Assembly (NCBI GenBank): GCA_947164965.1
Contig: CAMUYR010000009.1
Coordinates: 8,072 to 72,071, forward strand
From: an uncultured Prevotella sp.
GTDB lineage: Bacteria > Bacteroidota > Bacteroidia > Bacteroidales > Bacteroidaceae
Length of the DNA stretch: 64,000 bases
Direction of reading: 5' to 3'
Shown here: piece after piece, positions 336 through 25,959 of the stretch
Position numbering within the stretch: the stretch's first letter is position 1
Layout: every line of letters starts with the position of its first letter
Position numbers and translations under genes: made by a program
Notes under the pieces: model-generated
What the model was told of the DNA's origin: nothing
Seen by the model: the letters and a program-made list of their open reading frames with translations, nothing else
Database searches by the model: none

Positions 336-842
336 ATGAAAAAGATTGTAATGACAATGGTAGCCCTGCTGACAATGACAGCAGCTGTAGCACAGGACAA
401 CGAGAACCGTCAGCGTCGAGAGTTCAAGAAGCCAACCCCCGAGGAGATGACCAACCGTATGGCTGAGAATCTGAAGTTGGATGACAAGCAGAAGTCAAAA
501 GTGCTTGAGCTGAACAAGGAATATGAAAATGTGCTGATGGGTGGTCCTGGCATGGGCAGAGGCTTTGGCAAAGGTATGGGCCGTGGTCCTCGTCCTGATG
601 GTGAGACAGGTGCCACAAAGGGTAACGATCAGCAGAAGCAGCGTCCTCAGCGTCCAGAACTGACTGACGAACAGAAGGCACAGATGAAGCAGCATATGGA
701 GAAACGCCAAGAGTACGACAAGAAGCTGAAGAAGATTCTTACCGACGAGCAGTATAAGAACTATCAGGAACAGCATCGTCGTCATGGACACGGTCCACGT
801 GGTCCTCGCGGTCACCGCGGTCCTCGTCCAGACATGCAGTAA
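336..842 (+). CDS. DUF4890-like (Spy/CpxP-like) exported helical protein
   Basis: Signal peptide ending AVA-Q; PEEMTNRMAENLKLDDKQK and LKKILTDEQYKNY motifs; G/R/P-rich low-complexity stretches. Confidence 0.7.
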   Translation: MKKIVMTMVALLTMTAAVAQDNENRQRREFKKPTPEEMTNRMAENLKLDDKQKSKVLELNKEYENVLMGGPGMGRGFGKGMGRGPRPDGETGATKGNDQQKQRPQRPELTDEQKAQMKQHMEKRQEYDKKLKKILTDEQYKNYQEQHRRHGHGPRGPRGHRGPRPDMQ

Positions 843-2932
843 ACCGTTTCCTTGTTGCTGTCGATGGGCAAGCGCTGGTTATCAATGACAAGCCAGCCTT
901 GCCCATCGCTGGCTTTTATCTTAATCTGTTCACGGTTCATCTCGATATGGATGAGTCCGTGTGGTGTAGGCACATCACCTTCCAGCCATTCCAGATCGCC
1001 CAGGTTAGGCCTTACTTCATATTCCTCATAGCCAGGCTTCGTAGGCTGTACGCCCAGATAATATTTGCCTAACAGATAGACGGGCGATGCTCCCCAGGCA
1101 TGACACAATGATTTGCCATAGGGACGTCCGTACATCGCCAGATGCTGGGTGCCGGATTCCGATGGGACGTATTTTTCCCAGAACGAGGTAGCACCCTCAC
1201 GTAGCATTCCACCCCAGTAGTCGCGCATTTCCTGAAGCACTTGGGTATGCAAGCCGTCAATGCAAAGCGTCTCCAGTTCGTAGAAACGCATGTATGGCGT
1301 CGTGATAGGATCGATATCAGGATTGAGCATCACACTTTGCATAATCTCCCGTCGCTCTTCTTCGTAGGCTAGTCCGTAGAGGATGGCAAACATATTGGGG
1401 AACTTGGTGATCTGTTTGTTCATCACACCTTCCTCAATGGCATGATAATATGCTTTCTGTTCGTAGCTCCAGAAGGTCTGCTTAATCTTATTGCGCAACT
1501 CTTCTGACTTCACACGATAGCCGTTCTTGATGCCTAGCAGTTTGGCACAGATAGCCATCGTCTCCATAGCCTTCATAAGCAGTATCTGCTCGAAGCACAG
1601 CGTGCCACGTTTGTGCATGGGGAAATCCACCCAATCTACGAAAATCCAGTCGTCAGGTTGTCCCTCGGCCATACCGTTTGCATTCAGACGCCCTTCTACA
1701 TAATCCATCAGCGTCACCATGCGTGGCCACATCTCACGTACAAAGTCAATATCAGCAGTATACTGGTAGTAGTCGAGGATAGACTTAAACCAGTAGAACG
1801 TATAGTCCATGATGGTATTGACATGAGCCGTCACAGGGTCCTTACCGCGTAGCTGACGGATGGTACGCTTCACGCACTCCGTATCGAATCGCAGGTAGTA
1901 GTTCATCAGATACGACTGGATGGCATCACCGCTCCACGTCCAACGGTCTCGTTTAATGCCATCCATGAAAAACTCACGGGTGGTGAGGTCCATGGTGTAG
2001 GCTGCCACATCCCAGATGCGGTTTATCTCGTCGTCAGAACAACGGAACGAACCACTATGCTGTGGATTATAAGGCGTGTATTCGTAGTCCATCAGCACCT
2101 CGTCGTAGCTGGCGTCGCCGTCCTTTTCGATATAGACAAATCGAAAGGCTTTGCTGCTACACACGGAGACAGTCCCCCTGTGCTGAATCGCACACGGGGA
2201 CAGTCCCCCTGTGCTAAGTCCCCCTGTGCTAAGAACGTCGAGCGTTTCGCAATGCTCTTTGTCAAGGGCTTCCTCGCGGCTCTCACCATAATAAATATGG
2301 ATGGTTCCGTGCAGGCCTTTTATCTTCAGATAGCCGAAGGTCTCTTTCCCGAAATCGTAGAGGGTGCCGTTGGTTGCGATGACATCGCTACTTATAGGGC
2401 AAAGCTCTTCGCGCTCCAGACGGTAGCTGGAGGGTGGGGTGTCAGGACTGTCGAAATGCCAGGAAGCAGCAGGCACGTAGATGCCAGAACCATGCGCCAC
2501 GCCGTTTTCGTCTATCCATAGCTTGTCTTCATACGTGGCGAGCCAGGTAGAGTCGGTATGGATGGTGCTGCCTTCTATGTAGAGGGCTGGTGGTGTGGCT
2601 TGATTCCATACTTTCAGGTTGAGCTTATGTTCTCCTGCAGGTATACGATAAGTAGATGCAGGAAACTGCAACTTACCATCGAGTGCAAAGTTATACTGTC
2701 CCTCGCAGGCAATGGTGATCGTCTCCTCCTGCTCAAGGGTAAAAGCCTTCGAGAATTCTACCGTCACATAGTGTGAATCCTGTTTCCAGAACGGTGGAAA
2801 CATAGCACCACGTTCCGTCCTGCGGTTATTGAAAATATTACCTAGCCATATCTCGAAGTCGCCAGGATACCATATCCAGGTAGCCTTTTGGCTGTTAGCC
2901 ATTAGCTGTTGGCTATTATTTGATGCCTGCAT
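812..2932 (-). CDS. Alpha-L-rhamnosidase, GH78 family (BT1001-like)
   Basis: FRCSDDEINRIW, DGIKRDRW.WSGD and SLCHAWGASP motifs; TWIWYPGDFEIWL N-terminus; no signal peptide. Confidence 0.85.
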   Translation of the reverse strand: MQASNNSQQLMANSQKATWIWYPGDFEIWLGNIFNNRRTERGAMFPPFWKQDSHYVTVEFSKAFTLEQEETITIACEGQYNFALDGKLQFPASTYRIPAGEHKLNLKVWNQATPPALYIEGSTIHTDSTWLATYEDKLWIDENGVAHGSGIYVPAASWHFDSPDTPPSSYRLEREELCPISSDVIATNGTLYDFGKETFGYLKIKGLHGTIHIYYGESREEALDKEHCETLDVLSTGGLSTGGLSPCAIQHRGTVSVCSSKAFRFVYIEKDGDASYDEVLMDYEYTPYNPQHSGSFRCSDDEINRIWDVAAYTMDLTTREFFMDGIKRDRWTWSGDAIQSYLMNYYLRFDTECVKRTIRQLRGKDPVTAHVNTIMDYTFYWFKSILDYYQYTADIDFVREMWPRMVTLMDYVEGRLNANGMAEGQPDDWIFVDWVDFPMHKRGTLCFEQILLMKAMETMAICAKLLGIKNGYRVKSEELRNKIKQTFWSYEQKAYYHAIEEGVMNKQITKFPNMFAILYGLAYEEERREIMQSVMLNPDIDPITTPYMRFYELETLCIDGLHTQVLQEMRDYWGGMLREGATSFWEKYVPSESGTQHLAMYGRPYGKSLCHAWGASPVYLLGKYYLGVQPTKPGYEEYEVRPNLGDLEWLEGDVPTPHGLIHIEMNREQIKIKASDGQGWLVIDNQRLPIDSNKETVYCMSGRGPR
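2160..2233. repeat. Palindromic GGGGACAGTCCCC element, about 2.5 copies, in frame in GH78
   Basis: cacacggagacagtccccctgtg / cacacggggacagtccccctgtg / gtccccctgtgctaag; encodes LSTGGLSTGGLSPCAIQHRGTVSV. Confidence 0.85.
2886..2917. repeat. Heptamer array (GCYAAYN family) forming the GH78 N-terminus
   Basis: TTTTGGC TGTTAGC CATTAGC TGTTGGC; encodes NSQQLMANSQK. Confidence 0.8.
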
Positions 2933-5900
2933 TGTTTTTGATTTGTTCGTTTACTTGTGGTCCGTTATTCTCCCAGATGTTGCCAGGACCATTGGCATTC
3001 TTCAGGAATTTCTCTGCTGGTGTCCAGTTGTCACGGATGGTGATGTTCGAAGATCCCTCGTCGGTATACAGATAGAACCAATGGTTGGGGGCGTGGACGT
3101 AGCTGGGTGTAGCAATGTCGCGTACCACATTCTCACTAATCAGCGTTCCTGGCTGATTTCCCAGCGTATAGATACCTGCACAGTCGTACATGTGTTGGGC
3201 GTAGTTGTAGATGAGATTTGCGTGCACCTTATTATCCTTCATACATACCAGGTCACGGTTCCAACCCCAACCCAGCGAGATACCCGTGTATGAGACATCG
3301 TGGATGGTGTTATGCTCGATATTGATGCCCGAAACATAGCCCGCACAGATGGCCACACAGCCCCAGTCTTCATTGGTGACGTTATAGAAGAGGCTCTGCT
3401 CCACCGTCTGGTTGGTACATACCTCCCGAAAGTCTGTGGGCTGATAGGGCAGGTGAGTCTCTAATCCTTCTGGCGAGAAGGAACCACACACATAGCCATT
3501 CATCGCGATATCCGTAAACGTACAATGTGTCGTCTTGCCACCACGACAGCCCACGACATAATCAAGACCAGAGCCACCCAAGTGTTCAAAGCGGCAATTC
3601 TCGAAATTGATGTTCTCCGTATGGCGTAGTTCCACAGCGGCATCAGCACGTCCCAACCATCCCTGATTGTCCAGTTTGTGATTGTTCGGACGGTCTATCT
3701 GTGGGCGCAGCTTATAAGCTTCCGTCAGATACATGCCAGCCTGCAAGGGCACATGACCTTTTTCCGATGGGCGCATCCAAGTCGTATGACTGAAGGTGAC
3801 ACCTTTTATCTCTATATTCCGCACAGGACGTTCTGCTGTACCTATTACCTCCACCAACGTTTCGAGAACAGGAACGACGGCAGTAAATTGTTCACTTTTC
3901 ACGTTTAACTTCTCACTTTCCCGTGGCATGTAGTATAGCTTGTGCTCACGGATGTCGTGATACCACTCGCCAGGTACATCCAGCAGCTCTTTGGCATTTG
4001 TCAGATAGAATGGTGACGGATGTCCTGTATTGGGTGTCATAGGCGAAGGCCAGGGATGCTCAAACTGCAGCTTAGCTTCCGGGTTGTGAAATCTCACAGC
4101 TACGGAATCGCCCTGTGCTGTCAGACTCTTGATGCGCAGGTTCGATGTGCACCACATCTCGTGCAGTACCATCTCAGCGTATGGCGCCTTCATGATTGTC
4201 TCCACCGCTTTCTTTGGTACCCACAGAATATGGTTCTTCTTGTCGTAGGTGCGTATGCGGTTCATCTCTTCAAAGTCCTGTATGTCACGTGCTCGGATGG
4301 CTTTCTCTCCGTTTACCCATAACTGCCTGAAATCCAGAGGTCGCCCGTTGAAGTCTGGCACATCTGCCACCATCAGTTTCCCTTGGCGCTTCCAGTTCTT
4401 AATCGCCACTCCTCCGCTGATTACCGCATTCTCTCCTTCTATGCGCAACCCGCTATCTTCCGGACGCAGACGGATAGGTTCGTAGAGCCAGTAGGTGCCA
4501 GCACCGAGATGGATGGTGACATCAGTGGCTTGTCCTAATCGGCGCATTTCGCGAGCCTTCCTGATGGCATCCGTCAGCGATGAGTCGGGTGTGATGTTGA
4601 TATCTGCAGCCTGGATGGGCAGATACGAGAAGAGGAAGAATAGCAATATGCCTACAAACTTCTTAAAGTGAATAGAAAGCATCGTCAGGTCGTCACTCTG
4701 TTCTGCCTCTCCTACAAATGTGTGTACAGCTTCAGTCATATTATCAATCAGTTGCTTGGGATCTCTGCTTGATGTCTCAGCCACCTCGTTGATGCGCTCC
4801 TCCTGGAACTGCTCGTGGTTGATATTCTCAGCCTCCGTCAGTCCGTCTGTATAGAGGAAGATGGTTGTCTGGTCGTCAATCTCTGTTTCCTGCAGCGTAA
4901 AGTCCCAACCACCCATCACACCTGCAGGCAGGTTCGGATCGCAGGGTAATAAGCCGATGCCTCGTTCACCTATCAAGAGTGGCGCATCGTGTCCCGCATT
5001 ACAATAGCTCATGTGTCCGGTCTTGAGGTCTAGCACACCCACAAACAGAGTTGCAAACATGTTCGAATCGTTGCCTTCAGCCATAGCGTCGTTGATGCGT
5101 CTGACTATCAGGTTGGGTGCTGTCTCATGCATTGAGATAGTACGGAACTGGGCCTGTGTCACAGCCATCACCAAGGCTGCAGGCACACCCTTTCCCGATA
5201 CGTCGCCAATACAGAAGAAGAGGTTGTTGTCGCGGAAATAGAAATCAAACAGGTCGCCACCTACCGCTTTGGCAGGTTTCAGTCGTCCGTAGATGTCCAC
5301 CTCTTGGTGATCGGGGAATGGCGAGAATGCCTTGGGCAACATCGACATCTGGATATCGCTGGCAATATGCAACTCACCTTCTATCATTGCCTTCGAGGCT
5401 GTTGTCTTTTGCAACTGGTCGATATATTGCGTCAGTGATATCTGCATGTTCTCAAACGAGTCGCGCAACTCGCGTATCTCGTCTTCTGTCTTAATATTCG
5501 GCAGTTCCGCATTAAAGTCGCCCTTTGCCACTTCCGATGCCGAATTTGCCAGAGTCTTCAGTGGGAACAGCTGCGAATGGATGACAGTCTTCAGCACCAC
5601 ACCTATCGTCAGCAAGAGCACAATGAGCAGAATCAGCATGTGCATTCGCAACCTGTTAGGCTGCTCCATCACTTTCTCTTCCGGGATAGTGAAGCAGACA
5701 GACCATTGTACTCTCGATACTGGTGCATAGAATACCAGCGAGGTTCCTTGTTTCTTTTTCGATGCGTTCGATGTGAATAGCGCCAGGTCGTTGATAGTGT
5801 CTACGCCCTTTTCCCATCTCAGCATCTTGTTGGCCAACAGCGATGCTTCATTGTCTTTTATCTTTCTCAGTTGTGTGACGGCATTAGCCGTTTGTATCCA

Positions 5901-6617
5901 TTGAATATCAGGATGGCACACAAACTGAGAGTCGCGCCCCAGGATGAACACCTCCGAATAGTCGTAAGGCTTGGCACCTTCCACAATCTGCTGCACCCAG
6001 CGCAGGTCTACGTCGGCACACAGAATGGCATAGGTCTCTCCCTGCTCGTCGTGTAAGGGTACAGAGTATGACACCATCGCACGTTTCGTCGACATCGAGT
6101 CGATATATGGCAAGCACCAGTAGCCTTTGTCCAGCTTGTTGGTGTATATCCAGTTGCTGTCCGTCTCCAGATAGCAGAAGTCGTTTTCCGGACCGCCTAT
6201 CTCGTCCTCAGTCAGTTCACCGGTCATGGGATCGCGCGAGATGGTTGGTGCATAGTAGCGTCCTTGATCGGGAAAATAGTCGGCTTTATACATCAGTGTC
6301 ACGGCGGCGATGTCTTCGTTGGCTTCTATCAGTCGTTGCAGTAGTGTGTTTGCCAGCATCTCGTGAGGCGCCATCATGTAGGCATAGCTGGCTGCTGTCT
6401 TGACTGCCGTCTCAACTGTCGACACACGGTTATCTATCACCTTGATGGCATTCTCCATCGAACGGCTAGCCTGACGGTGTGTCTCTTCAGCAACGATGCC
6501 GCGTGTGTAGTTCATCTGCCATAATCCTCCTACCAGCGTGATAATCGTCACAATACCCAGCACCATGATGGTAGTACGTATCGCAACCGATCTGTTCAGA
6601 ATCCCAGGAAGTTTCAT
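2916..6617 (-). CDS. Fusion: TM-Cache-TM-HAMP-SpoIIE/PP2C phosphatase + hydrophobic linker + GH141-like beta-helix glycosidase
   Basis: Single 1233-aa ORF. PP2C motifs VGGDLFDF, IGDVSGKG, NAGH, LYTDGLTEA, SDDLTML; then FVGILLFFLFSYLPIQA; then BT1002-like LDFRQLWVNG, HVPLQAGMY, DNQGWLGR, YLYTDEGSS, NANGPGN. Confidence 0.85.
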   Translation of the reverse strand: MKLPGILNRSVAIRTTIMVLGIVTIITLVGGLWQMNYTRGIVAEETHRQASRSMENAIKVIDNRVSTVETAVKTAASYAYMMAPHEMLANTLLQRLIEANEDIAAVTLMYKADYFPDQGRYYAPTISRDPMTGELTEDEIGGPENDFCYLETDSNWIYTNKLDKGYWCLPYIDSMSTKRAMVSYSVPLHDEQGETYAILCADVDLRWVQQIVEGAKPYDYSEVFILGRDSQFVCHPDIQWIQTANAVTQLRKIKDNEASLLANKMLRWEKGVDTINDLALFTSNASKKKQGTSLVFYAPVSRVQWSVCFTIPEEKVMEQPNRLRMHMLILLIVLLLTIGVVLKTVIHSQLFPLKTLANSASEVAKGDFNAELPNIKTEDEIRELRDSFENMQISLTQYIDQLQKTTASKAMIEGELHIASDIQMSMLPKAFSPFPDHQEVDIYGRLKPAKAVGGDLFDFYFRDNNLFFCIGDVSGKGVPAALVMAVTQAQFRTISMHETAPNLIVRRINDAMAEGNDSNMFATLFVGVLDLKTGHMSYCNAGHDAPLLIGERGIGLLPCDPNLPAGVMGGWDFTLQETEIDDQTTIFLYTDGLTEAENINHEQFQEERINEVAETSSRDPKQLIDNMTEAVHTFVGEAEQSDDLTMLSIHFKKFVGILLFFLFSYLPIQAADINITPDSSLTDAIRKAREMRRLGQATDVTIHLGAGTYWLYEPIRLRPEDSGLRIEGENAVISGGVAIKNWKRQGKLMVADVPDFNGRPLDFRQLWVNGEKAIRARDIQDFEEMNRIRTYDKKNHILWVPKKAVETIMKAPYAEMVLHEMWCTSNLRIKSLTAQGDSVAVRFHNPEAKLQFEHPWPSPMTPNTGHPSPFYLTNAKELLDVPGEWYHDIREHKLYYMPRESEKLNVKSEQFTAVVPVLETLVEVIGTAERPVRNIEIKGVTFSHTTWMRPSEKGHVPLQAGMYLTEAYKLRPQIDRPNNHKLDNQGWLGRADAAVELRHTENINFENCRFEHLGGSGLDYVVGCRGGKTTHCTFTDIAMNGYVCGSFSPEGLETHLPYQPTDFREVCTNQTVEQSLFYNVTNEDWGCVAICAGYVSGINIEHNTIHDVSYTGISLGWGWNRDLVCMKDNKVHANLIYNYAQHMYDCAGIYTLGNQPGTLISENVVRDIATPSYVHAPNHWFYLYTDEGSSNITIRDNWTPAEKFLKNANGPGNIWENNGPQVNEQIKNNAGIK
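3891..3918. repeat. Heptamer array (TCACTTT family), in frame in the GH141-like domain
   Basis: TTCACTT TTCACGT TTAACTT CTCACTT; encodes SEKLNVKSE. Confidence 0.7.
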
Positions 6618-6639
6618 GTTCTATCTCTGTTTCTCTTGC

Positions 6640-7899
6640 TTATTTCACATTCAGTTTAGCGTATGCTTCTCCCATCAGCAGCAGGTCTTCATGATGCAAA
6701 AGGCTCACCTCGACACCCTTCTGGAATATCATCACGATGTCGCTGCCGCCAAACTGGAAGAATCCCATCTCGTCGCCCTGCTTCAACTCTTGTCCTACGT
6801 GCAGCGATGGAATCCAGTTGACGCTGCATATCTGCGACATGCCCACAGGCAACATCGCCACGAGTCCGTAGTCCTTCGTTTCGATGATGGCACAGGCACG
6901 TGTCTCTACCATCTGGAATCCTAAGTTGTTCTGATAGTAGTACAGCTTCTGCTCGTCGTCCCACAGCGTATAGCCACCACCTGCTGCAACACCAGGAATG
7001 CGTCGCAGCTCCAGCAGTTTGCCGCTGACGGGGGCATGGTAGCGGTGATAGCAGTTGACGTCCAGGAAGGTATGTGTCAGCGTACCGCCGGCAAAGGCAT
7101 TCTTATAGGCTGAATCATCACCTATCAGCTGTGCGATGTCGCTGAGTTTGGCAGTCTTGATCTGCAGGTCGTCGTAAACCAGTTGGTTGTTGTCGTCGAT
7201 AGCCCATGTCTTCTTGGGCCATGAGTCGGCAGGTGCTATCACATCCGCATCAGCAATGGGTCGCATCTCAGGTGACGCCAGGCTGCGGGCAAAAAACTCG
7301 TTGAAGGTCTTCCATTGGTTGCCCTCGCCATACCATCCTTTCGTCAGTCCCCAGTCGGGGTCCGATGCCAACATCTCGTAGTATGTGTCGTTCCAACTCT
7401 CTTCGGTTTCCAGAAAATCGCCCCACGACTGCGCATAGGTGGTAAGCCACGATGCAAAGGGCTCCACGAATTCGACTGTAGGATAATAGAAGCCTCGGTC
7501 TTTGAGTGCCTCCAACGGCTGGTCTACCACAAACCAGAAGTAGCCGATACCCTGATCTACTCTTCCGTAGAGCGACTGCCCGTAAGTGCCTGGGGCAGGG
7601 TAGGGCATCACGTCCCAAGGCAGACAGCGTATGTTACGGTCTACGAAATCGCAGAACTCGTCGAAATTCTGTGCGGGATTATAGCGTCTGTCGGGATTGA
7701 TGACTGCTGCCTGGCTGATAGCCTGTTCCAACAATTGGCGCACCTCCGTGTTTTCGTTGCAGATGCGAATCAGTTCGTTGACAGCCTCCGTATGTTGTTT
7801 CTGTGGTGGTACTACGGGATTGTCTTCCACACTACACGAGGTGTAGAAGAAGCAGAGTAACGTGGTGAAGACCAGAAGCCTCAGTGTTTTCTTGTTCAT
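6640..7899 (-). CDS. Phosphatidylserine-decarboxylase-family (pyruvoyl) enzyme with a lipoprotein signal
   Basis: FNEFFARSL, PADS, YHRYHAP and FQFGGSD self-cleavage motifs; N-terminal hydrophobic stretch ending YTS-C. Confidence 0.75.
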   Translation of the reverse strand: MNKKTLRLLVFTTLLCFFYTSCSVEDNPVVPPQKQHTEAVNELIRICNENTEVRQLLEQAISQAAVINPDRRYNPAQNFDEFCDFVDRNIRCLPWDVMPYPAPGTYGQSLYGRVDQGIGYFWFVVDQPLEALKDRGFYYPTVEFVEPFASWLTTYAQSWGDFLETEESWNDTYYEMLASDPDWGLTKGWYGEGNQWKTFNEFFARSLASPEMRPIADADVIAPADSWPKKTWAIDDNNQLVYDDLQIKTAKLSDIAQLIGDDSAYKNAFAGGTLTHTFLDVNCYHRYHAPVSGKLLELRRIPGVAAGGGYTLWDDEQKLYYYQNNLGFQMVETRACAIIETKDYGLVAMLPVGMSQICSVNWIPSLHVGQELKQGDEMGFFQFGGSDIVMIFQKGVEVSLLHHEDLLLMGEAYAKLNVK

Positions 7900-8603
7900 T
7901 GGGGAATGCTTAATGTTAGTCCGACAACAAAGTAACCTTTTTGCGAGCAGGGATTACCTATCAGCTGTGCATAGATGGGCACTGAGAAGTGCTCGGTAAT
8001 CTTGATATCCTTGGTGGCTTTCACGCTGACGTTGGTCACCGCAAAGCCGTTGGTTTCATAATAGGTGGTGGCATAGGGTACAACGCCTACCGTTGCCTCC
8101 CAGTTGCAGGTAGCCAGTTTGAAGGGTGCTGTCACTTCAGCATACGACGAATAGGCGCGCTTGTCACTTTTGTTCACACCGTCGCCTCCTGCAAAGATCG
8201 TCTGCCACGAAGCAGTGAGAATGCCGAAGTCGTAGGCAATGAACCCTTCAAACGCATGATAGGTCGAGTGGGCATTGTAGTCGAAATATTTCGTGTCCGA
8301 GTATCCGCTCCAGTAGTCTACGACACCAAGCGTCAGTCCTCCTGTGGTGTACGATGCCGTCAGGTCAAACTCCCTGGCGTCTTCCGATGTTGTCAGACTC
8401 ATCGAACCCCATGCCGAGAGGCTAAATCCCTTCCAGCTGACGCCCAGATTCGGCTGCACACTGGCGTGACCTAATTCCATACCGCGCCAGATATACTGGC
8501 TGACAAAATCTGCGGAGAGGGTTGCTTCCACCTTCTCCTGAGCATTCACTGCAGACCATCCTGCAGATACTAAAAGCACTATGGCAAATAAATAGTTGCG
8601 CAT
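7896..8603 (-). CDS. Outer-membrane beta-barrel, TorF/Gcw_chp-like putative porin
   Basis: Signal peptide ending VNA-Q; ADFVSQYIWRG motif; alternating beta strands. Confidence 0.6.
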   Translation of the reverse strand: MRNYLFAIVLLVSAGWSAVNAQEKVEATLSADFVSQYIWRGMELGHASVQPNLGVSWKGFSLSAWGSMSLTTSEDAREFDLTASYTTGGLTLGVVDYWSGYSDTKYFDYNAHSTYHAFEGFIAYDFGILTASWQTIFAGGDGVNKSDKRAYSSYAEVTAPFKLATCNWEATVGVVPYATTYYETNGFAVTNVSVKATKDIKITEHFSVPIYAQLIGNPCSQKGYFVVGLTLSIPQ

Positions 8604-8694
8604 GGTTATATATAATATATCTTATATATAACGACGACGAAGCCCGGATATTGTCATCATTACAAAATAATATGTTGTTCGTCATACTAATACT

Positions 8695-9450
8695 ATGAAG
8701 GTAGCTATCATACAAAACTGTATTCGTACGAAGCAGCTGGACTGGACGCTCCAGTTTGCCACCGACCTGATTAATCAGCAGCCTGGTGCCGACCTCTACG
8801 TGTTGCCAGAGACTTTTGCCACAGGGTTTATGGTCGAAGGCACTACACAACAGGCACATGTGCAAGGTCCGCAGATCCTCCTTTGGATGCAGCAACAGGC
8901 CCGTCGCCTGAATGCCGCAGTAGCAGGCAGTATCGCCATTTTCGACGATGAAGGACTCTTGCGCAACCGCCTCTTCTTCGTCCGTCCTGATGGCAGCTAT
9001 GATTATTACGACAAGCACCATCTCTTCACCTATGCTGGCGAGACGAAGGATTATGTCGCAGGCCAGCGTCGCGTCGTGGTTGAATGGCGAGGCGTGCGGT
9101 TCCTGCTGCAGGTGTGCTACGATCTTCGTTTCCCTGTTTTCTCGCGCAATCGTGGCGACTACGATGCCGTTATCTATGTGGCCAATTGGCCGCTTAGCCG
9201 TAAGGATGTGTGGCATACGTTGCTCCGTGCACGCGCCTTGGAGAATCAGTGTTTTGTCATAGCGACTAATATCTCTGGCGACGATGCAGGCGTTTGTTAT
9301 CATGCGGGCGACTCTGCCATCATCGATGCCTATGGCCACACCCTTGCCGAGTGTATCACGGGTCGTGTCGAGTCAGCCTCCGCCGAGCTCGATATGGAGT
9401 CGCTGCAGCGCTTCCGCCAGAAGTTTCCCGTCCTCGCTGATGCCGATTGA
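8695..9450 (+). CDS. Nitrilase-superfamily amidohydrolase (YafV/omega-amidase-like)
   Basis: VLPETFATGF, YDKHHLF and VCYDLRFP (Glu-Lys-Cys triad). Confidence 0.85.
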   Translation: MKVAIIQNCIRTKQLDWTLQFATDLINQQPGADLYVLPETFATGFMVEGTTQQAHVQGPQILLWMQQQARRLNAAVAGSIAIFDDEGLLRNRLFFVRPDGSYDYYDKHHLFTYAGETKDYVAGQRRVVVEWRGVRFLLQVCYDLRFPVFSRNRGDYDAVIYVANWPLSRKDVWHTLLRARALENQCFVIATNISGDDAGVCYHAGDSAIIDAYGHTLAECITGRVESASAELDMESLQRFRQKFPVLADAD

Positions 9451-9590
9451 ATCACATACCGTTTTTTTGCCGAATGTCGCAGTTCATGGTATAAAAACGG
9501 GGATTCGTTGAAAAGATTTGGGGAAATGGCGATTTGTGTCTATCTTTGCGCCATGTTAACAAGCTACATGCTATAAAAAGGTAAAAGGAT

Positions 9591-11378
9591 ATGAAAAAGA
9601 TGACAATGGTGATGCTCATGGCATCGATGGTGGGCGCAACAGCCTGTTCGAGTGAAGACCCGATTAATGATTTGTATAACGAGATGGATAATTTCGGCGG
9701 TGGCGGCATGGCTGGCGGCATGGGTTCGGCTACGGCTGGCAGCGGCGAACTGACGACGTTTACGATTGCTCTGGACAAGACGACAGCTGAGCCCAGCAGT
9801 GTGGCAGATGAGTATTTCCCTGACGAGGAGGACTTGCTGGAGAACAACGAGTTTACGACGGAAGTGAACATCGACCTGTCGAACCCAACGGCATCGACGG
9901 AGAACGGTGTGGAGATTACCGTCAACGGCGGACACATCACAGCCAATCACGGATCGACGAAGAAGATATGCTACGTGGTGAGCGGCAAGACGGAGAACGG
10001 CTCGTTTACTGTTGTGGGCGACAAGAAATACGAGGTGAAGCTGAACGGCGTGGACATCACGAATCCGGACAGTGCCGCCCTGAATCTGCTGAGTGGCAAA
10101 CGGGCTTACATCGTGCTGGCTGACGGTACGACGAACAAGCTGGCGGATGGCACCACGTCGCAGAACAACCACAAGGGTGCGCTGTACTGCAAGGGTAAGC
10201 TGCTCTTCAACGGCAACGGGGCACTGGAGGTGTATGGCAACTACGCAAACGCCATTCATACGGCCGACTATATCGTGTTCCGCAAGGGTAATAACATCTA
10301 TGCCAACTCGACCATCAAGAACGGTATCAAGGCCAACGACGGCGTATTCATCAACGGCGGCATCATCAACGTAGAGGTATCGGCAGCAGGTGCCAAGGGT
10401 ATCAACTGCGAGGACGACATCATCATCAACGGAGGACGTACGACGGTGGTGGCCACAGGTAATGGCACTTGGGACTCTGACGATCAGGAGACCAAGGCGG
10501 CTGCCGGCATCAAGGCCGACTCGATCATCACTATCAATGCGGGTGAGGTATACCTGAAGGCTACAGGCAGCGGCGGCAAGGGTCTGAAGGCCGACTGGGA
10601 GGCTTACATCAACGGCGGTAAGCTGCGCGTCATCACGGAAGGCGGTCTCTATTACAGCAACGGATCGTCGGAAAACCACAACTATACGGGGAATACCGAT
10701 AATTTGAACGACGACTACACATCGTCGCCAAAGGGCATCAAGGTAGGTACGAAGAATGTACACGGCGTGCTGGACATCACGGGTGGCGACATCATGGTAC
10801 GCACAAAGGGCACCAACGGCGAGGGTATCGAGTCGAAGGGTACGCTGACCATCACGGACGGCAGAGTCATGGTGGCTGCCTACGACGATGCCATCAACTC
10901 CAGCAGCGACCTGACCATCAGCGGCGGCAACGTCGTGGCAGTAGGCATCAACAACGACGGTCTGGACACCAACGGCAACCTGTACATTAAGGGTGGCACG
11001 CTGATAGCCATGGGTGCTGGAGGTGCTGAGACGGGTATCGACATCGACGAGCAGCACAAGCTCTATATCACCGGTGGTAACATCTTCGGAATAGGTGGAC
11101 GCGTAGACGGCAGCATAGGAAGTACCTCACAGGGTATTGCCACCACCAGCGGATCGGTAGCTGCCAACGCCACAGTGACCGTCAGCAATGGCAGTACGAC
11201 ACTGGCCTCGTTTACCATGCCTCCATACTCTTACAATAACGGCACCATCATGGTGAGTGCGCCAGGCATGAGCAGCGGCAACAGCTATACGCTGAAGCTG
11301 GGCTCTACGTCGCAAAGCATCACAGCATCGAACAGCATCAACAGCTCGATGGGAGGCGGTCCTGGCGGACGCAGATAA
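9591..11378 (+). CDS. Carbohydrate-binding lipoprotein, DUF4353/Cthe_2159 family
   Basis: Lipobox ATA-C; repeated beta-helix motifs (GIKAND...INGG, DDAINS, DGLDTNGNLYIKGG); promoter TATCTTTG at 9541. Confidence 0.8.
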   Translation: MKKMTMVMLMASMVGATACSSEDPINDLYNEMDNFGGGGMAGGMGSATAGSGELTTFTIALDKTTAEPSSVADEYFPDEEDLLENNEFTTEVNIDLSNPTASTENGVEITVNGGHITANHGSTKKICYVVSGKTENGSFTVVGDKKYEVKLNGVDITNPDSAALNLLSGKRAYIVLADGTTNKLADGTTSQNNHKGALYCKGKLLFNGNGALEVYGNYANAIHTADYIVFRKGNNIYANSTIKNGIKANDGVFINGGIINVEVSAAGAKGINCEDDIIINGGRTTVVATGNGTWDSDDQETKAAAGIKADSIITINAGEVYLKATGSGGKGLKADWEAYINGGKLRVITEGGLYYSNGSSENHNYTGNTDNLNDDYTSSPKGIKVGTKNVHGVLDITGGDIMVRTKGTNGEGIESKGTLTITDGRVMVAAYDDAINSSSDLTISGGNVVAVGINNDGLDTNGNLYIKGGTLIAMGAGGAETGIDIDEQHKLYITGGNIFGIGGRVDGSIGSTSQGIATTSGSVAANATVTVSNGSTTLASFTMPPYSYNNGTIMVSAPGMSSGNSYTLKLGSTSQSITASNSINSSMGGGPGGRR

Positions 11379-11394
11379 AAAGCGAAGAAATAGC

Positions 11395-11433
11395 AAATAT
11401 CCGGGCTTACATTTGGTGAGTCCGGATATTTTT
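11395..11433 (+). terminator. Intrinsic terminator
   Basis: AAATATCCGGGCTTAC-loop-GTGAGTCCGGATATTTTT. Confidence 0.75.
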
Positions 11434-11480
11434 CTTATCTTTGCAGCACAATAACGAACAAACTTTATTCTACAAACGAT

Positions 11481-12920
11481 ATGAAACAGATTATAGCTAT
11501 TTTAAGTTTCCTGCTTATCCCGATGTGTGCGTCGGCTCAAACACCTGCAGAGCTTTTTACGAAAGGTTTATCTGCATTTAACACTAAGGATTATGACAAT
11601 GCGCTCAAACTATATGAGCAGGCAGCATTTCAAGGACACGCTGGTGCACAATGCAATCTCGGGTTTATGTATGCAAACGGCAAAGGCGTAAAGAGAGACT
11701 ATAAGAAGGCTATGGACTGGTATATGGAAGCTGCAAATCAAGGCAATACCATAGCCCAATTTAACCTTGCTACGATGTATAATACAGGCAAGGGATGCAA
11801 GGTGGATTATAGCCAAGCCTACCTGTGGTTTCTGAAGGCTGCACAGCAGGGACATGATGGCGCGCAGACGAATCTTGGATATATGTATGAGAAAGGACGT
11901 GGCGTCAACAAGAACCTGAGCAAATCACTGGAATGGTATATGAAAGCTGCAGCGCAGGGTAATGAGCAGGCAGCAAACTGCGTGACGATATTAAGGAACA
12001 AGAATCCCTATCTGAATGAAAACGCGAATGCTGCCAGTCAGCCTCAGGTGGCCTATGCACAGCAACAAGCCCCAGTTCAGAATGTCCAGCCGCAGGCTCC
12101 TGCACCTGTTACCCAGCCTGTTGCTCCGATGAAGAACAGGGATATCATCGACACTGAGATCCCAACTGTCAAGGACGTCAACAGCACTACCTTTGCCATC
12201 ATCATTGCCAACGAAGACTACCAGAAGGAAACAAAGGTCGACTATGCGCTGAACGACGGTGATATATTCAAGACCTATTGCCACAAGACCTTAGGTCTGC
12301 CTGAGAAGAATATCCATTATGTCCCCAATTCTACGCTCAACAATCTTATTGATGAACTAGAATGGCTCAGACAGGTATGCGAGGCTTTCAATGGCGAGGC
12401 AAGTTTGATATTCTATTATGCAGGTCATGGTGTACCCGACGAAAAGTCTGGCTCTGCTTATCTGCTGCCTACCGATGGTAACAGCCGCATCATGCGTACC
12501 TGTTTCAACATGAATGAGCTTTATGAGACCCTGGGAAAAATGCCTGCCAAGAAAGTGACGGTATTCATGGATGCCTGCTTCTCGGGCAGTCAGCGAAGCG
12601 GTGAGATGCTAGCAGCAGCCCGTGGTGTGGCTATCAAGGCTAAACCTGCCGCACCCAAGGGTAACATGGTGGTTTTGACAGCAGCACAAGGCGACGAGAC
12701 GGCCTATAAATACGAAAAAGGTCAGCATGGTCTGTTCACCTATTTCCTCCTGAAGAAACTGAAAGAAACCAAAGGAAATGTGACGTTCGGCGAATTGAGC
12801 GAATATATTGAAACTGAAGTGAAACGTTTCTCTATCGTAGAAAACGGCAAGAGCCAGACACCGAGTGTCATGACATCAGGTAATCTTTCCGATAATTGGA
12901 AGAACATCAAGTTTAATTAA
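11481..12920 (+). CDS. Secreted Sel1-repeat + caspase-like (peptidase C14) protein
   Basis: Signal peptide ASA-Q; about 4 Sel1 repeats; Q/P linker; YYAGHG and FMDACFSG dyad. Confidence 0.85.
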   Translation: MKQIIAILSFLLIPMCASAQTPAELFTKGLSAFNTKDYDNALKLYEQAAFQGHAGAQCNLGFMYANGKGVKRDYKKAMDWYMEAANQGNTIAQFNLATMYNTGKGCKVDYSQAYLWFLKAAQQGHDGAQTNLGYMYEKGRGVNKNLSKSLEWYMKAAAQGNEQAANCVTILRNKNPYLNENANAASQPQVAYAQQQAPVQNVQPQAPAPVTQPVAPMKNRDIIDTEIPTVKDVNSTTFAIIIANEDYQKETKVDYALNDGDIFKTYCHKTLGLPEKNIHYVPNSTLNNLIDELEWLRQVCEAFNGEASLIFYYAGHGVPDEKSGSAYLLPTDGNSRIMRTCFNMNELYETLGKMPAKKVTVFMDACFSGSQRSGEMLAAARGVAIKAKPAAPKGNMVVLTAAQGDETAYKYEKGQHGLFTYFLLKKLKETKGNVTFGELSEYIETEVKRFSIVENGKSQTPSVMTSGNLSDNWKNIKFN

Positions 12921-12943
12921 GTGGTTAGAAGCAATCCTGACTC

Positions 12944-13318
12944 ATGAAGCGGAAGGTGCTGTTCATTTTCGCTATCGTTGTGGTGATAGTCCTGGCTACA
13001 CTGGCTATGACGAAACCAGATAGGGCTGCTCATTATGAAGCAGTGAAGGCGATGGCGTTGAAAACGGTAGACCACGAACTGTCTAAGAATCCGCAGACCG
13101 CTGAATATGCGGCAATAGGTACGGCGAAAGCGCTGAACATGATAGACGAATATCTGCAGAGAAATCTTTTGGTATACGAGCATACATTTTATTCATCTGG
13201 AGTACTGATTTACAACGATAGGTTTATCCCCATCTCGGTTGGCGTCTTTAACAAGGTCTATCTCACCGTCGGTGAAGAGGACGTCAAGCGAGTGGTGGAA
13301 ATTCCGGATCCCTTTTAA
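12944..13318 (+). CDS. DUF4359-like membrane-anchored protein
   Basis: N-terminal TM followed by MTKPD..AHYEAV. Confidence 0.55.
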   Translation: MKRKVLFIFAIVVVIVLATLAMTKPDRAAHYEAVKAMALKTVDHELSKNPQTAEYAAIGTAKALNMIDEYLQRNLLVYEHTFYSSGVLIYNDRFIPISVGVFNKVYLTVGEEDVKRVVEIPDPF

Positions 13319-13357
13319 GCTTTTAATTAAGCTAGTTTTACTAAAAACTATCCGAAA

Positions 13358-13423
13358 ATGAAAACAAGACAATTATTCTTAATAGTGTTCCTTTCCATTT
13401 GGAAAATAACCTTGGGTTATTGA
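13358..13423 (+). other. Small hydrophobic ORF MKTRQLFLIVFLSIWKITLGY (peptide or gene remnant)
   Basis: ATG after an A-rich leader; signal-peptide-like 21 codons. Confidence 0.3.
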
Positions 13424-13463
13424 TTGATAAGCGGCACTTACTGAAAAATTTTATTTTTGCGAT

Positions 13464-13552
13464 TTATCTGCCATACTGCCACCAGCTCTCTGAATTGCTT
13501 TTGTACAAAGGGGTTGTCTGGTGGTGGCAGATTTGAAATTGATGGCAGATAA
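13464..13552. repeat. Nested inverted repeat
   Basis: TTATCTGCCAT/ATGGCAGATAA outer arms, CTGCCACCA/TGGTGGCAG inner arms, central TTTGTACAAA. Confidence 0.75.
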
Positions 13553-13726
13553 GGCTTCTTTTGGTGGTTTTAAAGGCTAATATGTGGTATTCTGAAGGCT
13601 ATTTTGCCTCGTTCTAAAGGCTGTTTTTGGTCATTTTGAAGGCTACTACGGGTTGTTCCAAAGCCTTCTTAGGGTCATTCTAAAGGTTTCTATGGGTCGT
13701 GCTAAAGGCTACGATGGGGCATAGAG
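13551..13726. repeat. Degenerate 22-bp tandem array (AAGGCT-anchored), 8 units
   Basis: AAG(G/C) anchors at 13551, 13573, 13595, 13617, 13639, 13661, 13683 and 13705. Confidence 0.85.
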
Positions 13727-13809
13727 AGCTTTACCATCAGGCAAAGGAAACTTCAGGATGAGGCATCATGTATGTTTATACACATATAGAAACGACGTAG
13801 CAAGCGGGG

Positions 13810-13875
13810 AGTTTGAAGTAAGCAAACTAGGAGTTTAGTTACGGCAAACTGCCAGTTTAGTGCCGGTAAACTCTG
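13810..13875. repeat. 22-bp palindromic-unit array AGTTT-N9-AAACT x3
   Basis: AGTTT at 13810, 13832 and 13854; same family as the array at 63386. Confidence 0.85.
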
Positions 13876-13930
13876 AAGGGGTAGAGAAATCGAGTATTTA
13901 TGCATTTCCTGCATGGATATGCAAGAGCGC

Positions 13931-14012
13931 AATGGAATTGCTTCCATCAATAGGTGCAATTGCTAGATTTAATGGTAACAATTGCTACCATTAATGGAAA
14001 CAATTATCAGAT
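13931..14012. repeat. 22-bp palindromic-unit array (AATGGTAACAATTGCTACCATT), about 3.5 units
   Basis: CAATT at 13957, 13979 and 14001. Confidence 0.75.
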
Positions 14013-14033
14013 TATCGAAAAAAGGCGCATTCG

Positions 14034-14315
14034 AAAATATCCCTCCCTTCCTCCCGTAACCCATCGCAAATGCCGATAAATAAAGGGATGAAGACACGGG
14101 AGGGATAAGCAATGCCCCTCCCGTCTCCCTCCCGTTTTTATCAAAACGGCCTCCCAGCAAAAAATGTCAACACTCGTTAGGAATAGCAGAAAAAGTGAGT
14201 GAATGAGACCTCAAAGGGAGGGTAACGGGAGGGTGAAAAGATATCCCTCCCGTGCTTTAAATGCCCTGTACATAAGGGGTTGAGGCCTGTGACGGGAGGA
14301 AGGGAGGGATGTTTT
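14034..14315. mobile_element. MITE-like non-coding element with 27-bp terminal inverted repeats
   Basis: AAAATATCCCTCCCTTCCTCCCGTAAC versus the reverse complement of the right end AAAACATCCCTCCCTTCCTCCCGTCAC; internal CCCTCCCGT/ACGGGAGGG pairs. Confidence 0.6.
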
Positions 14316-14323
14316 GAGAATCT

Positions 14324-14482
14324 CTATTTCTTGTAATTCAGCGCAGCACCAATGGCTGTACAGAACTCGACATGTTTGGGGATATGGAAATGGACACCGT
14401 ATAGTTTCTCCAACATGGGGTAGACGTCCTTGCACTGGGGAAGGAGCGTCAGGTTGCCAATGAGCACGAAGTCCTCAGCAAA
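14324..14482 (-). pseudogene. 3' remnant of a type II pantothenate kinase-like gene
   Basis: Reads FAEDFVLIGNLTLLPQCKDVYPMLEKLYGVHFHIPKHVEFCTAIGAALNYKK*; no own start; a GGGACAGTCC element sits at the breakpoint. Confidence 0.6.
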
Positions 14483-14515
14483 AGTGGACTGTCCCGCTGT
14501 GTCCGTTCGGTGGGC

Positions 14516-15007: not shown

Positions 15008-15179
15008 ATTTAAATGCCAATGTCTTCATCTGACCGCTTAATTAACTTGATGCTGCAAAGATAAAAAAAATGACTGGACTCGCCAAATGTGGGTCCGACT
15101 TTTTTTGCTTTTCTTTTGGCGGTTTACAAATAATTCATTACTTTTGCGCCCGAAATGATGACCAAATGATTTAGAAACA

Positions 15180-25956: not shown

Positions 25957-25959
25957 CGT

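Follow-up and report, generated by a model that had tools for sequence, protein, structure and literature searches.

Two soluble fungal enzymes have so far represented the PsiD/Ao-ADC1 branch of the phosphatidylserine-decarboxylase (PSD) fold. Ao-ADC1 of Aspergillus oryzae (PDB 9JER/9JF5/9JFN) is a pyruvoyl-dependent arginine decarboxylase and does not act as a PSD (PMC12904898). PsiD of Psilocybe cubensis (PDB 8X4Q/8ZIA), which belongs to the secondary-metabolite cluster for psilocybin biosynthesis, decarboxylates L-tryptophan and inhibits itself by putting Trp27 of its N terminus into the pocket (PMC11929908). In the literature consulted, Ao-ADC1 is not described as a lipoprotein, and neither a sensor nor a channel partner is described for it; our literature searches found no characterised bacterial member of the branch. 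In the Sus paradigm of Bacteroidota, a surface lipoprotein enzyme acts first, its product passes through an outer-membrane barrel encoded by a neighbouring gene, and a periplasmic sensor responds. Finally, the amine-type dCache sensor domains have lost the carboxylate-binding Arg of amino-acid sensors and kept the Asp, and SpoIIE phosphatases are among the proteins that carry them (PMC10589655).

We analyzed a 64,000-nucleotide stretch of DNA from an uncultured rumen Prevotella sp. (the window), in which a barrel gene (P0001), a PSD-like gene (P0002) and a sensor gene (P0003) follow one another on the minus strand. Table 1 shows the features of the locus. The original prediction had described a 4-nt overlap between the porin and PSD-like genes, a 22-nt distance to the SpoIIE-GH141 gene, and a lipobox and an FGGS motif in the PSD-like protein, and all of these were found in the window. 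The ATG of P0002 overlaps the stop codon of P0001 in ATGA (7899-7896), and the spacer between P0002 and the sensor gene leaves no room for both a terminator and a promoter; a search of it for terminator-like sites found none. No exact Bacteroidota -7 box (TAnnTTTG) occurs in the divergent intergenic region or on the minus strand of 2693-15056, and the promoter and terminator scans gave nothing above shuffled expectation. We rejected a connection with the C-N hydrolase gene that diverges from the unit (8695-9450), since none of the related loci yielded a homologue of it.

TABLE 1 Features of the barrel-decarboxylase-sensor locus, in coordinates of the window
Feature	Coordinates	Strand	Description
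P0001 (gene A)	7896..8603	minus	235 aa; signal peptide ends in VNA, followed by QE; outer-membrane beta-barrel, putative small channel
P0002 (gene B)	6640..7899	minus	419 aa; lipoprotein proenzyme, predicted PsiD/Ao-ADC1-type pyruvoyl-dependent decarboxylase
P0002, predicted chains			beta, Cys22-Gly385; alpha, Ser386-Lys419 (34 aa)
P0002, signal peptide and lipobox	7834..7899	minus	residues 1-22, Cys22 at 7836-7834; then SVEDN
P0002, FGGS	6742..6753	minus	residues 383-386; predicted self-cleavage/pyruvoyl site between Gly385 and Ser386
P0002, His285	7045..7047	minus	first His of YHRYH; predicted self-cleavage base
P0002, Asp225	7225-7227	minus	third residue of the predicted triad
P0003, sensor half	4653..6617	minus	residues 1-655: TM, double-PDC/dCache, TM, HAMP, PP2C (SpoIIE) (Pfam)
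P0003, predicted ligand pocket	6012..6173	minus	membrane-distal PDC module: Tyr149, Ser154, Trp156, Tyr171, Asp202 (alignment to Mlp24, 6iop)
P0003, GH141 half	2916-4652	minus	fused after the sensor half
Spacer, P0002 to sensor gene	6618..6639	minus	22 nt
Divergent intergenic region	8604..8694	.	91 nt; expected promoter site of the barrel-decarboxylase-sensor unit

The N terminus of P0002, MNKKTLRLLVFTTLLCFFYTSC, and the fold model described below indicate that the protein is an exported, lipid-anchored proenzyme and a second PSD-fold copy. All 10 orthologues that were aligned have Cys22, and a lipobox Cys is present in nearly all of 52 genome loci. The SVEDN stretch after Cys22 is acidic, like the lipoprotein export signal of Bacteroidota. 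According to the rule for that signal, the lipobox Cys is followed by S/K/Q-A and at least two D/E at +3/+4, and the CS(D/E)2 form is needed for surface exposure of SusG (PMC6222051). The orthologues of P0002 have C-[STAQR]-(D/E)2-3 after the lipobox, most of them as C-[ST]-D-[DE]-D-like runs. Since P0002 itself has C-S-V-E-D, with the acidic residues at +4/+5 and not at +3/+4, surface exposure is less certain for P0002 than for its orthologues.

PF02666 covers residues 199-412 of P0002 (E 7.7e-36), and the residues for self-cleavage are well conserved. In a family alignment of 25 sequences of 28-77% identity, Gly385-Ser386 and His285 are invariant, and at least 90% of the sequences have Asp225. 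FGGS, which matches the PsiD self-cleavage motif GGSS, aligns with the junctions G402-S403 of PsiD and G441-S442 of Ao-ADC1; His285 aligns with His296 of PsiD and His332 of Ao-ADC1, and Asp225 with Glu242 of PsiD. The database name for proteins of this type is "phosphatidylserine decarboxylase." We found 1824 database relatives at E<=0.001, and the matches in the ESM Atlas were all of P0002's own kind, labelled putative phosphatidylserine decarboxylase.

The AF2 model of P0002 (pLDDT 88.9) would place the protein in the PsiD/Ao-ADC1 branch, as its whole mature chain superposes on both fungal enzymes. Using VIA-align, we obtained a Z of 25.9 over 323 residues with Ao-ADC1 (9jer; model 35-385, chain 61-441) and of 25.2 with PsiD (8zia; model 34-385, chain 55-402), and both superpositions stop exactly at the cleavage Gly of P0002. 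With E. coli PSD, only the C-terminal half could be superposed (~230 residues, model 134-384), at a Z of about 17. The Foldseek TM scores with PsiD/Ao-ADC1-type enzymes were 0.66-0.69. When the PDB was searched by sequence, Ao-ADC1 was the best match (2.9e-13), followed by PsiD (1.8e-12) and E. coli PSD (9.4e-8). The family profile of the catalytic domain scored PsiD (6.5e-28), E. coli PSD (1.5e-25) and Ao-ADC1 (3.5e-25) about equally, and because of this the placement of P0002 rests on the full-length structural match. The match of PF12588 (PSDC, PsiD-like) to residues 1-200 of P0002 was below threshold (E 0.055; 14 bits, cut-off 23.4). Among 25 family members, 5 matched PF12588 at E<=0.1, and P0282 matched it with an E of 5e-4.

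P0002 thus resembles Ao-ADC1 in its helical N-terminal region followed by PF02666, its Gly-Ser cleavage site and its catalytic His, and PsiD in its two-part fold. However, identity with Ao-ADC1 is 18%, the His motif is CYHRYH in place of SYHCWN, and both known enzymes are fungal while P0002 is a predicted bacterial lipoprotein. With PsiD and Ao-ADC1 as its nearest solved relatives and a canonical psd elsewhere in the genome, the earlier view of an exported second PSD-fold protein akin to non-lipid decarboxylases was supported. Other relatives of P0002 are fused with NRPS condensation domains or a nucleoside hydrolase, which indicates small-molecule chemistry. Pocket residues were also tried as a guide to the substrate and were rejected: the contact residues of PsiD that could be mapped (F289/L290, Y338, T374 and R351) correspond to F278/L279, Y321, S355 and R334 of P0002, and all of these are conserved family-wide and do not discriminate.

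We then considered the barrel protein P0001, which has 4112 database relatives at E<=0.001. Its AF2 model (pLDDT 82) is all-beta with 14 strands, and Foldseek matched it with probability 1.00 to outer-membrane barrels, the best TM scores being those with NanC (0.53/0.60), PcoB and KdgM. The signal peptide and the closed antiparallel beta-barrel in the AF2 and Foldseek results mark P0001 as an outer-membrane barrel. The proposal that it is TorF-like found weak support. The putative porins of the Gcw_chp/TorF family (PF09694), like P0001, combine a signal peptide with a small, ~210-residue beta-barrel, and PF09694 matches 4 of 23 homologues of P0001 (best E 3.6e-6), but P0001 itself has no PF09694 match even at E<=10 and no Pfam match at all. 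What sets the Prevotellaceae family of P0001 apart from Gcw_chp/TorF is its linkage to amtB. A second copy of P0001 (57% identity) lies directly after amtB on contig C2 of the same genome, and amtB was found within 1.5 kb of a barrel of this family in 23 of 29 loci of other species. Sequence comparison identifies P0001 as a paralogue of these amtB-linked barrels, which may be distant relatives of Gcw_chp/TorF. Nothing usable on an amtB-linked porin family and TorF was found in the literature; the barrels that accompany amtB in Prevotellaceae are a candidate route for ammonium or small amines across the outer membrane.

The decarboxylase-linked barrels form a clade of their own (18 of 20; support 100/93), which makes a dedicated porin, as originally predicted, plausible; the gene is nevertheless absent from most loci, as shown below. 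A specialised pore lining was rejected, as just one column (W57 against Y) separates decarboxylase-linked from amtB-linked barrels at 80% conservation. Complex prediction for the barrel and the mature decarboxylase gave a score of 0.00, which counts neither for nor against binding.

The third gene encodes the Cache-HAMP-SpoIIE::GH141 protein P0003 (1233 aa, 6617..2916, minus strand), whose predicted ligand-binding domain spans roughly residues 35-325. Pfam dCache_1 matched it below threshold (37.6 against a cut-off of 45). In a weak alignment to 6iop (E 6e-4), Ser154 takes the position of the carboxylate-binding Arg of amino-acid sensors. The five predicted pocket residues are invariant in 34 adjacent sensor orthologues, in which the segment FCYLETDSNW[IV]Y...LPYxDS...CADV is near-invariant, while it differs in 6 non-adjacent paralogues. 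Like the dCache_1AM amine sensors PctD, PacA and McpX (PMC10589655), P0003 is predicted to have a double-PDC domain which has kept the Asp and the aromatic residues and lost the Arg; unlike them, sensors of the P0003 type have Ile or Val at the position equivalent to Tyr129. The alignment, which covered the conserved pocket residues, suggests an amine-type pocket and makes P0003 a candidate member of the class, whose published motif also includes an Arg-Asp pair (R103/D133 of PctD) on a helical insertion over the pocket. Most orthologous sensors carry an RsbW-like kinase domain and have a STAS gene after them (18 loci with the long sensor), and their output would therefore be partner switching.

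To delineate the partners of the decarboxylase, we compared related loci, which were found with an alignment of closer relatives; the loci counted come from Prevotellaceae of the rumen that are related to one another, and they cannot be treated as independent. Among the carriers is a cultured strain, Prevotella sp. MA2016 (L026). In 30 of the 45 loci that could be evaluated, the gene immediately downstream of the decarboxylase encodes an orthologue of the dCache-HAMP-PP2C sensor. The barrel is also present in 18 of these 30, or about 40% of all 45 (18/45), and no barrel was found without the sensor (0/45). Since it occurs in just 18 of 45 loci, the barrel is an optional part. The remaining 15 of the 45 loci have the decarboxylase in varied contexts with neither sensor nor barrel, and for this reason the enzyme appears also to work alone. 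Of 80 genomes drawn from the family, a single one had the sensor orthologue; it was also the only one with a decarboxylase orthologue, and there the two were adjacent. The adjacency, with short gaps, is kept down to 56% identity, as in locus L103, whose decarboxylase, 56% identical to P0002, is paired with a sensor that shares the pocket motif and is preceded by an SNF-family symporter gene upstream. In contrast, GH141 is adjacent only in the window and in three to four other loci, L070, L067 and L010 among them. The conserved partner of the decarboxylase is the dCache-HAMP-PP2C sensor and not the pectin enzymes, and the link to pectin enzymes that had been proposed was not supported beyond this local setting.

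These results led us to propose a convert-then-sense module, in which the exported decarboxylase would make an amine that is read by the adjacent sensor; on the sequences and models, we consider the chances that this is correct to be about even. In the proposed order of events, the P0002 proenzyme would cleave itself between Gly385 and Ser386, and Ser386 would become the pyruvoyl group. Through a Schiff base between this pyruvoyl group and the free alpha-amino group of a small substrate, the carboxylate would be removed to give the amine and CO2. The acidic stretch that follows the lipidated Cys suggests that P0002 would be found at the cell surface or on vesicles of the outer membrane, where it would convert an external amino acid to its amine. 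The amine would then pass the outer membrane through the barrel, a small, negatively charged protein in ~40% of the loci that was probably duplicated from the amtB-linked barrel. Binding of the amine to the periplasmic dCache domain would switch the phosphatase. An amine is the expected ligand because the pocket keeps the amino-binding Asp and the aromatic residues and has Ser and acidic residues in place of the carboxylate-binding Arg. Our leading guess for the substrate of P0002 is a basic amino acid.

The order of events proposed for P0002 is analogous to the polysaccharide-utilisation (PUL) logic of Bacteroidota. However, the P0002 module lacks a SusC/SusD pair, a glycan and a hybrid two-component system; it has a small, 12-14-stranded barrel and a predicted PP2C/STAS partner-switching output. 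It is possible, although we would doubt it more than we would believe it, that the surface pyruvoyl decarboxylase, the paralogue of the amtB-linked barrel, the amine-type dCache sensor and the PP2C/RsbW-kinase/STAS switch together make up a non-glycan counterpart of a PUL, which would generate its own periplasmic signal from an outside nutrient. If the convert-then-sense reading is true, an abundant rumen genus has a cofactor-independent amino-acid decarboxylase outside the cytoplasm, which is relevant to biogenic amines in the gut, and vesicles that carry the enzyme would supply such amines in the rumen from a source so far unrecognised. It would also provide a concrete, testable case of a sensor ligand made by a dedicated exported enzyme, and it would correct an annotation error that is widespread among Bacteroidota of the rumen and gut.

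On the other hand, P0002 may be a stand-alone extracellular or periplasmic catabolic decarboxylase, producing amines, CO2 or pH buffering, while the sensor merely controls expression of the enzyme, or responds to the substrate or to some other compound, and does not read the product. The barrel would then take in the amino acid on which the enzyme acts, as in the original prediction. The 15 loci that have the enzyme without either partner point in this direction, as do the homologues in one spirochaete and one firmicute, which have no sensor or barrel partners. The SNF-family symporter upstream in L103 and speA upstream in one lineage would likewise fit amino-acid or polyamine metabolism. However, the sensor orthologue was never seen apart from the enzyme gene, its pocket lacks the carboxylate-binding Arg expected for a sensor of the amino-acid substrate, and the PP2C/STAS output offers no obvious route to the regulation of a single operon. 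We therefore regard catabolism alone as rather unlikely. As a clue to the substrate, the speA adjacency was rejected: it is real in 5 loci, but since the speA genes are at least 98% identical, it represents one lineage and one event.

A third reading would make P0002 a head-group decarboxylase for outer-membrane lipids, acting on phosphatidylserine or another serine or amino-acid lipid in envelope remodelling, with the sensor tracking the state of the envelope. P0002 shares the PF02666 domain with the housekeeping Psd of E. coli (PDB 6L06/7CNW), and both have the Asp-His-Ser self-cleavage residues and pyruvoyl chemistry (predicted for P0002). The fold and the complete triad thus agree with a lipid substrate, but the whole chain of P0002, including its N-terminal helical domain, fits the soluble amino-acid decarboxylases (Z 25-26), while the match to E. 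coli PSD is confined to 134-384. Although the family profile gives the catalytic domain of E. coli PSD as good a score as PsiD, Ao-ADC1 of the same branch lacks PSD activity (PMC12904898), and the fusion partners of the relatives include no lipid enzymes. The lipid anchor would place P0002 at the membrane; the genome, however, has a canonical psd for 229 aa followed by pssA on a separate contig (C4), and P0002 is not its only psd. That psd scores 273.7 with NF003678 (cut-off, 225) and the pssA gene 108.7 with TIGR00473 (cut-off, 107), whereas all five matches of P0002 to NCBIfam Psd equivalogs fall far below their cut-offs (best NF001941, 80.8 bits against 371), and pairwise BLAST between P0002 and the Psd of its own genome found no similarity. 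P0002 also differs in having another N-terminal domain, in being predicted as an exported lipoprotein and not an inner-membrane enzyme, and in having no adjoining pssA. P0002 is distinct from the housekeeping Psd, and we consider a lipid substrate improbable.

Extracytoplasmic lipoproteins are sensor partners in other bacterial systems, and P0002 could similarly be a non-catalytic accessory pseudoenzyme that binds the ligand or the periplasmic domain of the sensor, or its adjacency could be meaningless, but this is very improbable given that all residues for self-cleavage and the pyruvoyl group are invariant or nearly so across 28-77% identity, that the short-gap adjacency persists down to 56% identity, and that the linked barrels form their own clade.

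With the convert-then-sense module as the preferred reading, the locus in the window is a modified version. This lineage alone has GH141 and GH78 as neighbours of the module, and the GH141 half of P0003 is a secondary fusion. In this genome the sensor has no kinase tail and no STAS neighbour and is fused to GH141, and since the kinase tail and the STAS gene have been lost and GH141 has been added, signalling through P0003 may be altered.

Four genes on the minus strand of the window lie head to tail in the order outer-membrane barrel (P0001), PSD-fold lipoprotein (P0002, the decarboxylase), sensor-glycosidase fusion (P0003, with the sensor as its N-terminal half) and GH78 rhamnosidase. The stop codon of P0001 overlaps the start codon of P0002 by 4 nt (ATGA), and 22 nt separate P0002 from P0003. 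The original prediction had described this layout together with a lipobox and an FGGS site in P0002, and it was correct in every detail. Because of the 4-nt overlap and the 22-nt gap, co-transcription of the barrel, decarboxylase and sensor genes is implied, and a terminator scan found no terminator-like site in either junction. Across a 91-nt gap from the barrel gene, a divergently transcribed gene encodes a C-N hydrolase, a YafV-like amidohydrolase (NF007757, 244.3 bits, below the cut-off of 249). Since no homologue of this hydrolase was found in any related locus examined, it is probably unrelated to the module formed by the decarboxylase, the sensor and, in some loci, the barrel.

Features of the window and of the loci compared with it, in the coordinates of each sequence
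Sequence	Feature	Coordinates	Strand	Remarks
Window	P0001, outer-membrane barrel	8603..7896	minus	235 aa
Window	P0002, PSD-fold lipoprotein	7899..6640	minus	419 aa; N-terminus MNKKTLRLLVFTTLLCFFYTSC-SVEDN; FGGS = residues 383-386
Window	P0003, sensor-glycosidase fusion	6617..2916	minus	1233 aa; MCP-like PDC/dCache, HAMP, SpoIIE, then GH141 (Pfam)
Window	GH78 rhamnosidase	2932..812	minus	
Window	C-N hydrolase	8695-9450	plus	
Contig C2, same genome	amtB-linked barrel	23963-25957		L019, L020
L026	speA	6062-7954		
L057	STAS-phosphotransferase fusion	6722-7918		398 aa
L067	GH127, decarboxylase, GH141	8001-11417		
L070	GH127, decarboxylase, GH141	5905-12955		
L103, metagenomic	symporter, decarboxylase, sensor	1788-6304		

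To follow the module beyond the window, homologues of the window genes were located in 52 species-level loci, rumen Prevotellaceae almost throughout, of which 45 could be evaluated on both sides. An orthologous dCache-HAMP-PP2C sensor (PP2C being the SpoIIE-type phosphatase domain) starts within 400 nt downstream of the decarboxylase in 30 of the 45 loci, and 18 of these 30 also carry the barrel, directly upstream in 16 and after the sensor in 2. Neither partner is present in 15 loci, and in no case does the barrel occur where the sensor is missing. In one draw of 80 genomes of the bacterial family, an orthologue of the sensor ligand-binding domain (59% identity) was found only in G112, the remaining matches reaching at most 32% identity. 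G112 is also the sole genome of the draw with a decarboxylase orthologue (73% identity), which adjoins the sensor, with the barrel alongside; with few positives in related genomes, this co-occurrence is supportive rather than statistical. The metagenomic locus L103 has an SNF-family symporter, a decarboxylase (56% identity) and a dCache-HAMP-SpoIIE sensor with the same pocket motif, in that order; the SNF family is of the sodium:neurotransmitter/amino-acid type. The decarboxylase and the sensor are inherited together, joined by the barrel in some members of the family. The 15 loci without partners support an alternative in which P0002 is a stand-alone catabolic decarboxylase that its neighbour merely regulates.

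The typical orthologous sensor is about 800 aa long and ends in a HATPase_c_2 domain, an RsbW-like kinase (for example in L007, L026 and L029), and a 100-aa STAS gene follows it immediately in 18 loci. By domain content, the long sensor with STAS has the make-up of a partner-switching module. The window sensor and its nearest relatives (606-667 aa) are a short form with neither kinase tail nor STAS neighbour; the PP2C domain of the window sensor continues directly into the GH141 signal peptide, and six STAS paralogues lie elsewhere in the genome. In L057, a fusion of STAS with an APH/choline-kinase-like phosphotransferase is encoded directly upstream of the decarboxylase, and the usual STAS gene also follows the sensor.

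The original prediction had also proposed co-expression with pectin enzymes. This link proved to be local, because GH141 adjoins the decarboxylase only in the window and in three loci, L010, L067 and L070. In those three, the decarboxylase is flanked by GH127 and GH141, and GH78 is close by, which makes a BT1001-1003-like set; the nearest sensor in L010 and L067 is a 41%-identical paralogue on the opposite strand. The glycosidase surroundings recur within a single sub-lineage, whether or not the orthologous sensor is present. In five other loci (L026, L029, L031, L033 and L034), the decarboxylase is immediately preceded by speA, which encodes the PLP-dependent enzyme of biosynthetic arginine decarboxylation; the gene order is topA-aroK-speA-decarboxylase-sensor-STAS. 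These speA genes share at least 98% identity and hence count as one lineage.

We compared P0002 with housekeeping Psd. A profile search of the whole genome found two PF02666 genes, P0002 and a 229-aa protein on contig C4. The latter exceeds the cut-off of NCBIfam equivalog NF003678 (273.7 against 225 bits) and has pssA as its downstream neighbour, so the separate canonical psd is present. P0002 falls far under all NCBIfam Psd equivalog cut-offs (best 80.8 against 371), and pairwise BLAST detected no similarity between the two proteins. P0002 is an additional copy, distinct from the housekeeping gene.

PF02666 is the sole Pfam match of P0002 (residues 199-412, E 7.7e-36). Among solved structures, P0002 is closest in sequence to Aspergillus oryzae Ao-ADC1 (E 2.9e-13) and to PsiD (E 1.8e-12), while E. 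coli PSD is more distant (E 9.4e-8). Ao-ADC1 decarboxylates arginine by means of a pyruvoyl group and shows no activity as a PSD (PMC12904898). PsiD acts on tryptophan in the psilocybin pathway; it is cleaved at a GGSS site and has His296 and Glu242 as catalytic residues (PMC11929908). An AlphaFold model of P0002 built on 25 relatives (mean pLDDT 88.9) was superposed with VIA-align on Ao-ADC1 (Z 25.9; model 35-385, chain 61-441) and PsiD (Z 25.2; model 34-385, chain 55-402), the superposed stretch starting in both cases just past the lipid anchor and ending precisely at the cleavage Gly. E. coli PSD covered only model residues 134-384, with Z about 17, and Foldseek was concordant. In the alignment, G385|S386, H285 and D225 of P0002 are the counterparts of the PsiD cleavage site, His296 and Glu242; among 25 sequences of 28-77% identity, H285, G385 and S386 are invariant and D225 occurs in at least 90%. 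Model and alignment together show a predicted PsiD/Ao-ADC1 fold with the catalytic residues intact. In the catalytic domain, a family profile gave PsiD, E. coli PSD and Ao-ADC1 similar scores, and the match of the N-terminal part to PF12588 stayed below threshold; P0002 is therefore placed by its fold over the full length and by the GGS motif rather than by a tree.

These results disfavour a role for P0002 as an outer-membrane lipid head-group decarboxylase, as its full-length match is to soluble amino-acid enzymes and the genome has a canonical psd-pssA. That the catalytic residues are invariant and the synteny is conserved likewise speaks against a pseudoenzyme or a meaningless gene adjacency. 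The chemistry and fold of P0002 are already known; its predicted cellular location and its proposed wiring to a sensor and a channel are new. An incomplete literature search yielded no description of a PsiD-type decarboxylase from bacteria. Among relatives at 38-44% identity (P0246, P0247, P0259, P0275, P0285 and P0244), an NRPS condensation domain is fused at the N-terminus or, in one, an inosine-uridine nucleoside hydrolase at the C-terminus; both fusion types suggest that other members of the PsiD-like branch have small-molecule functions.

Cys22 of P0002 is invariant among close orthologues, and the lipobox Cys is followed by an acidic run (CSDDD, CTDDDE, CQKDDD, CSNDD) in nearly all 49 Prevotellaceae loci. 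In Bacteroides, CS(D/E)2 is the export signal that places SusG on the surface and in vesicles (PMC6222051). As judged from its lipobox, P0002 carries a predicted export signal; its own post-Cys motif is the variant CSVED. Surface exposure is likely for the family and, because CSVED is shifted, somewhat less certain for the window protein.

The P0001 model is an all-beta barrel of 14 strands (pLDDT 82), with the small outer-membrane channels NanC, PcoB and KdgM as its best structural matches; PF09694 is touched by 4 of 23 P0001 homologues. The barrel family is matched in 52 of 81 genomes of the bacterial family. Outside this species, 29 loci (L074-L102) were compared; amtB lies within 1.5 kb of the barrel in 23 of them, and several metagenomic contigs have the order glnB-amtB-barrel. 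Both barrel kinds occur in the window's genome, the amtB-linked copy being 57% identical to P0001. A maximum-likelihood tree placed 18 of 20 decarboxylase-linked barrels in one clade (support 100/93) and all 20 on one side of a weakly supported branch. Net charge is negative in both groups (about -5.5 and -6.4). We read P0001 as the product of an old duplication of a small cation- or ammonium-type channel, which has accompanied the decarboxylase and sensor ever since. The Prevotellaceae barrels immediately adjacent to amtB, about 230 aa long and without a Pfam family of their own, may give ammonium or small amines a way across the outer membrane; an incomplete literature search turned up nothing on an amtB-linked barrel in Bacteroidota.

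The sensor periplasmic domain aligns weakly with amino-acid-binding dCache receptors (Mlp24, 6iop, E 6e-4; PctA, E 0.16). On this weak alignment, the published amino-acid motif tracks onto Tyr149, Ser154, Trp156, Tyr171 and Asp202, with Ser154 at the position of the carboxylate-binding Arg. The pocket sequence FCYLETDSNW[IV]Y...LPYxDS...CADV is nearly invariant in 34 of 34 decarboxylase-adjacent sensors and different in six paralogues. Amine-binding dCache domains, which occur in SpoIIE phosphatases, retain the Asp and aromatics and lose the Arg (PMC10589655). On this reading, the pocket would suit an amine, and Glu151 and Asp153 suggest that it may be a di-cation.

In the mechanism we propose, P0002 would cleave itself at G385|S386 to yield a lipidated beta chain (22-385) and an alpha chain of 34 residues carrying the pyruvoyl group at its N-terminus. 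On the cell surface or on vesicles, it would decarboxylate a substrate bearing a free alpha-amino acid group; the product amine would cross via the barrel, and its binding to the dCache domain would switch PP2C activity. There are weak hints that the substrate is a basic amino acid: the top sequence match is an arginine decarboxylase, the sensor pocket has acidic residues, the channel ancestry is cation-type, and speA lies upstream in one lineage.

Within the genus to which the window belongs, 24 species were sampled and the decarboxylase gene was found in none. Homologues of 42-47% identity occur in gut or rumen members of other phyla (L068 and L069, Bullifex porci, Spirochaetota; L071, a Solobacterium MAG), which suggests transfer of the gene among inhabitants of the same habitat. 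The lipobox is present in the spirochaete homologue and absent from the firmicute one.
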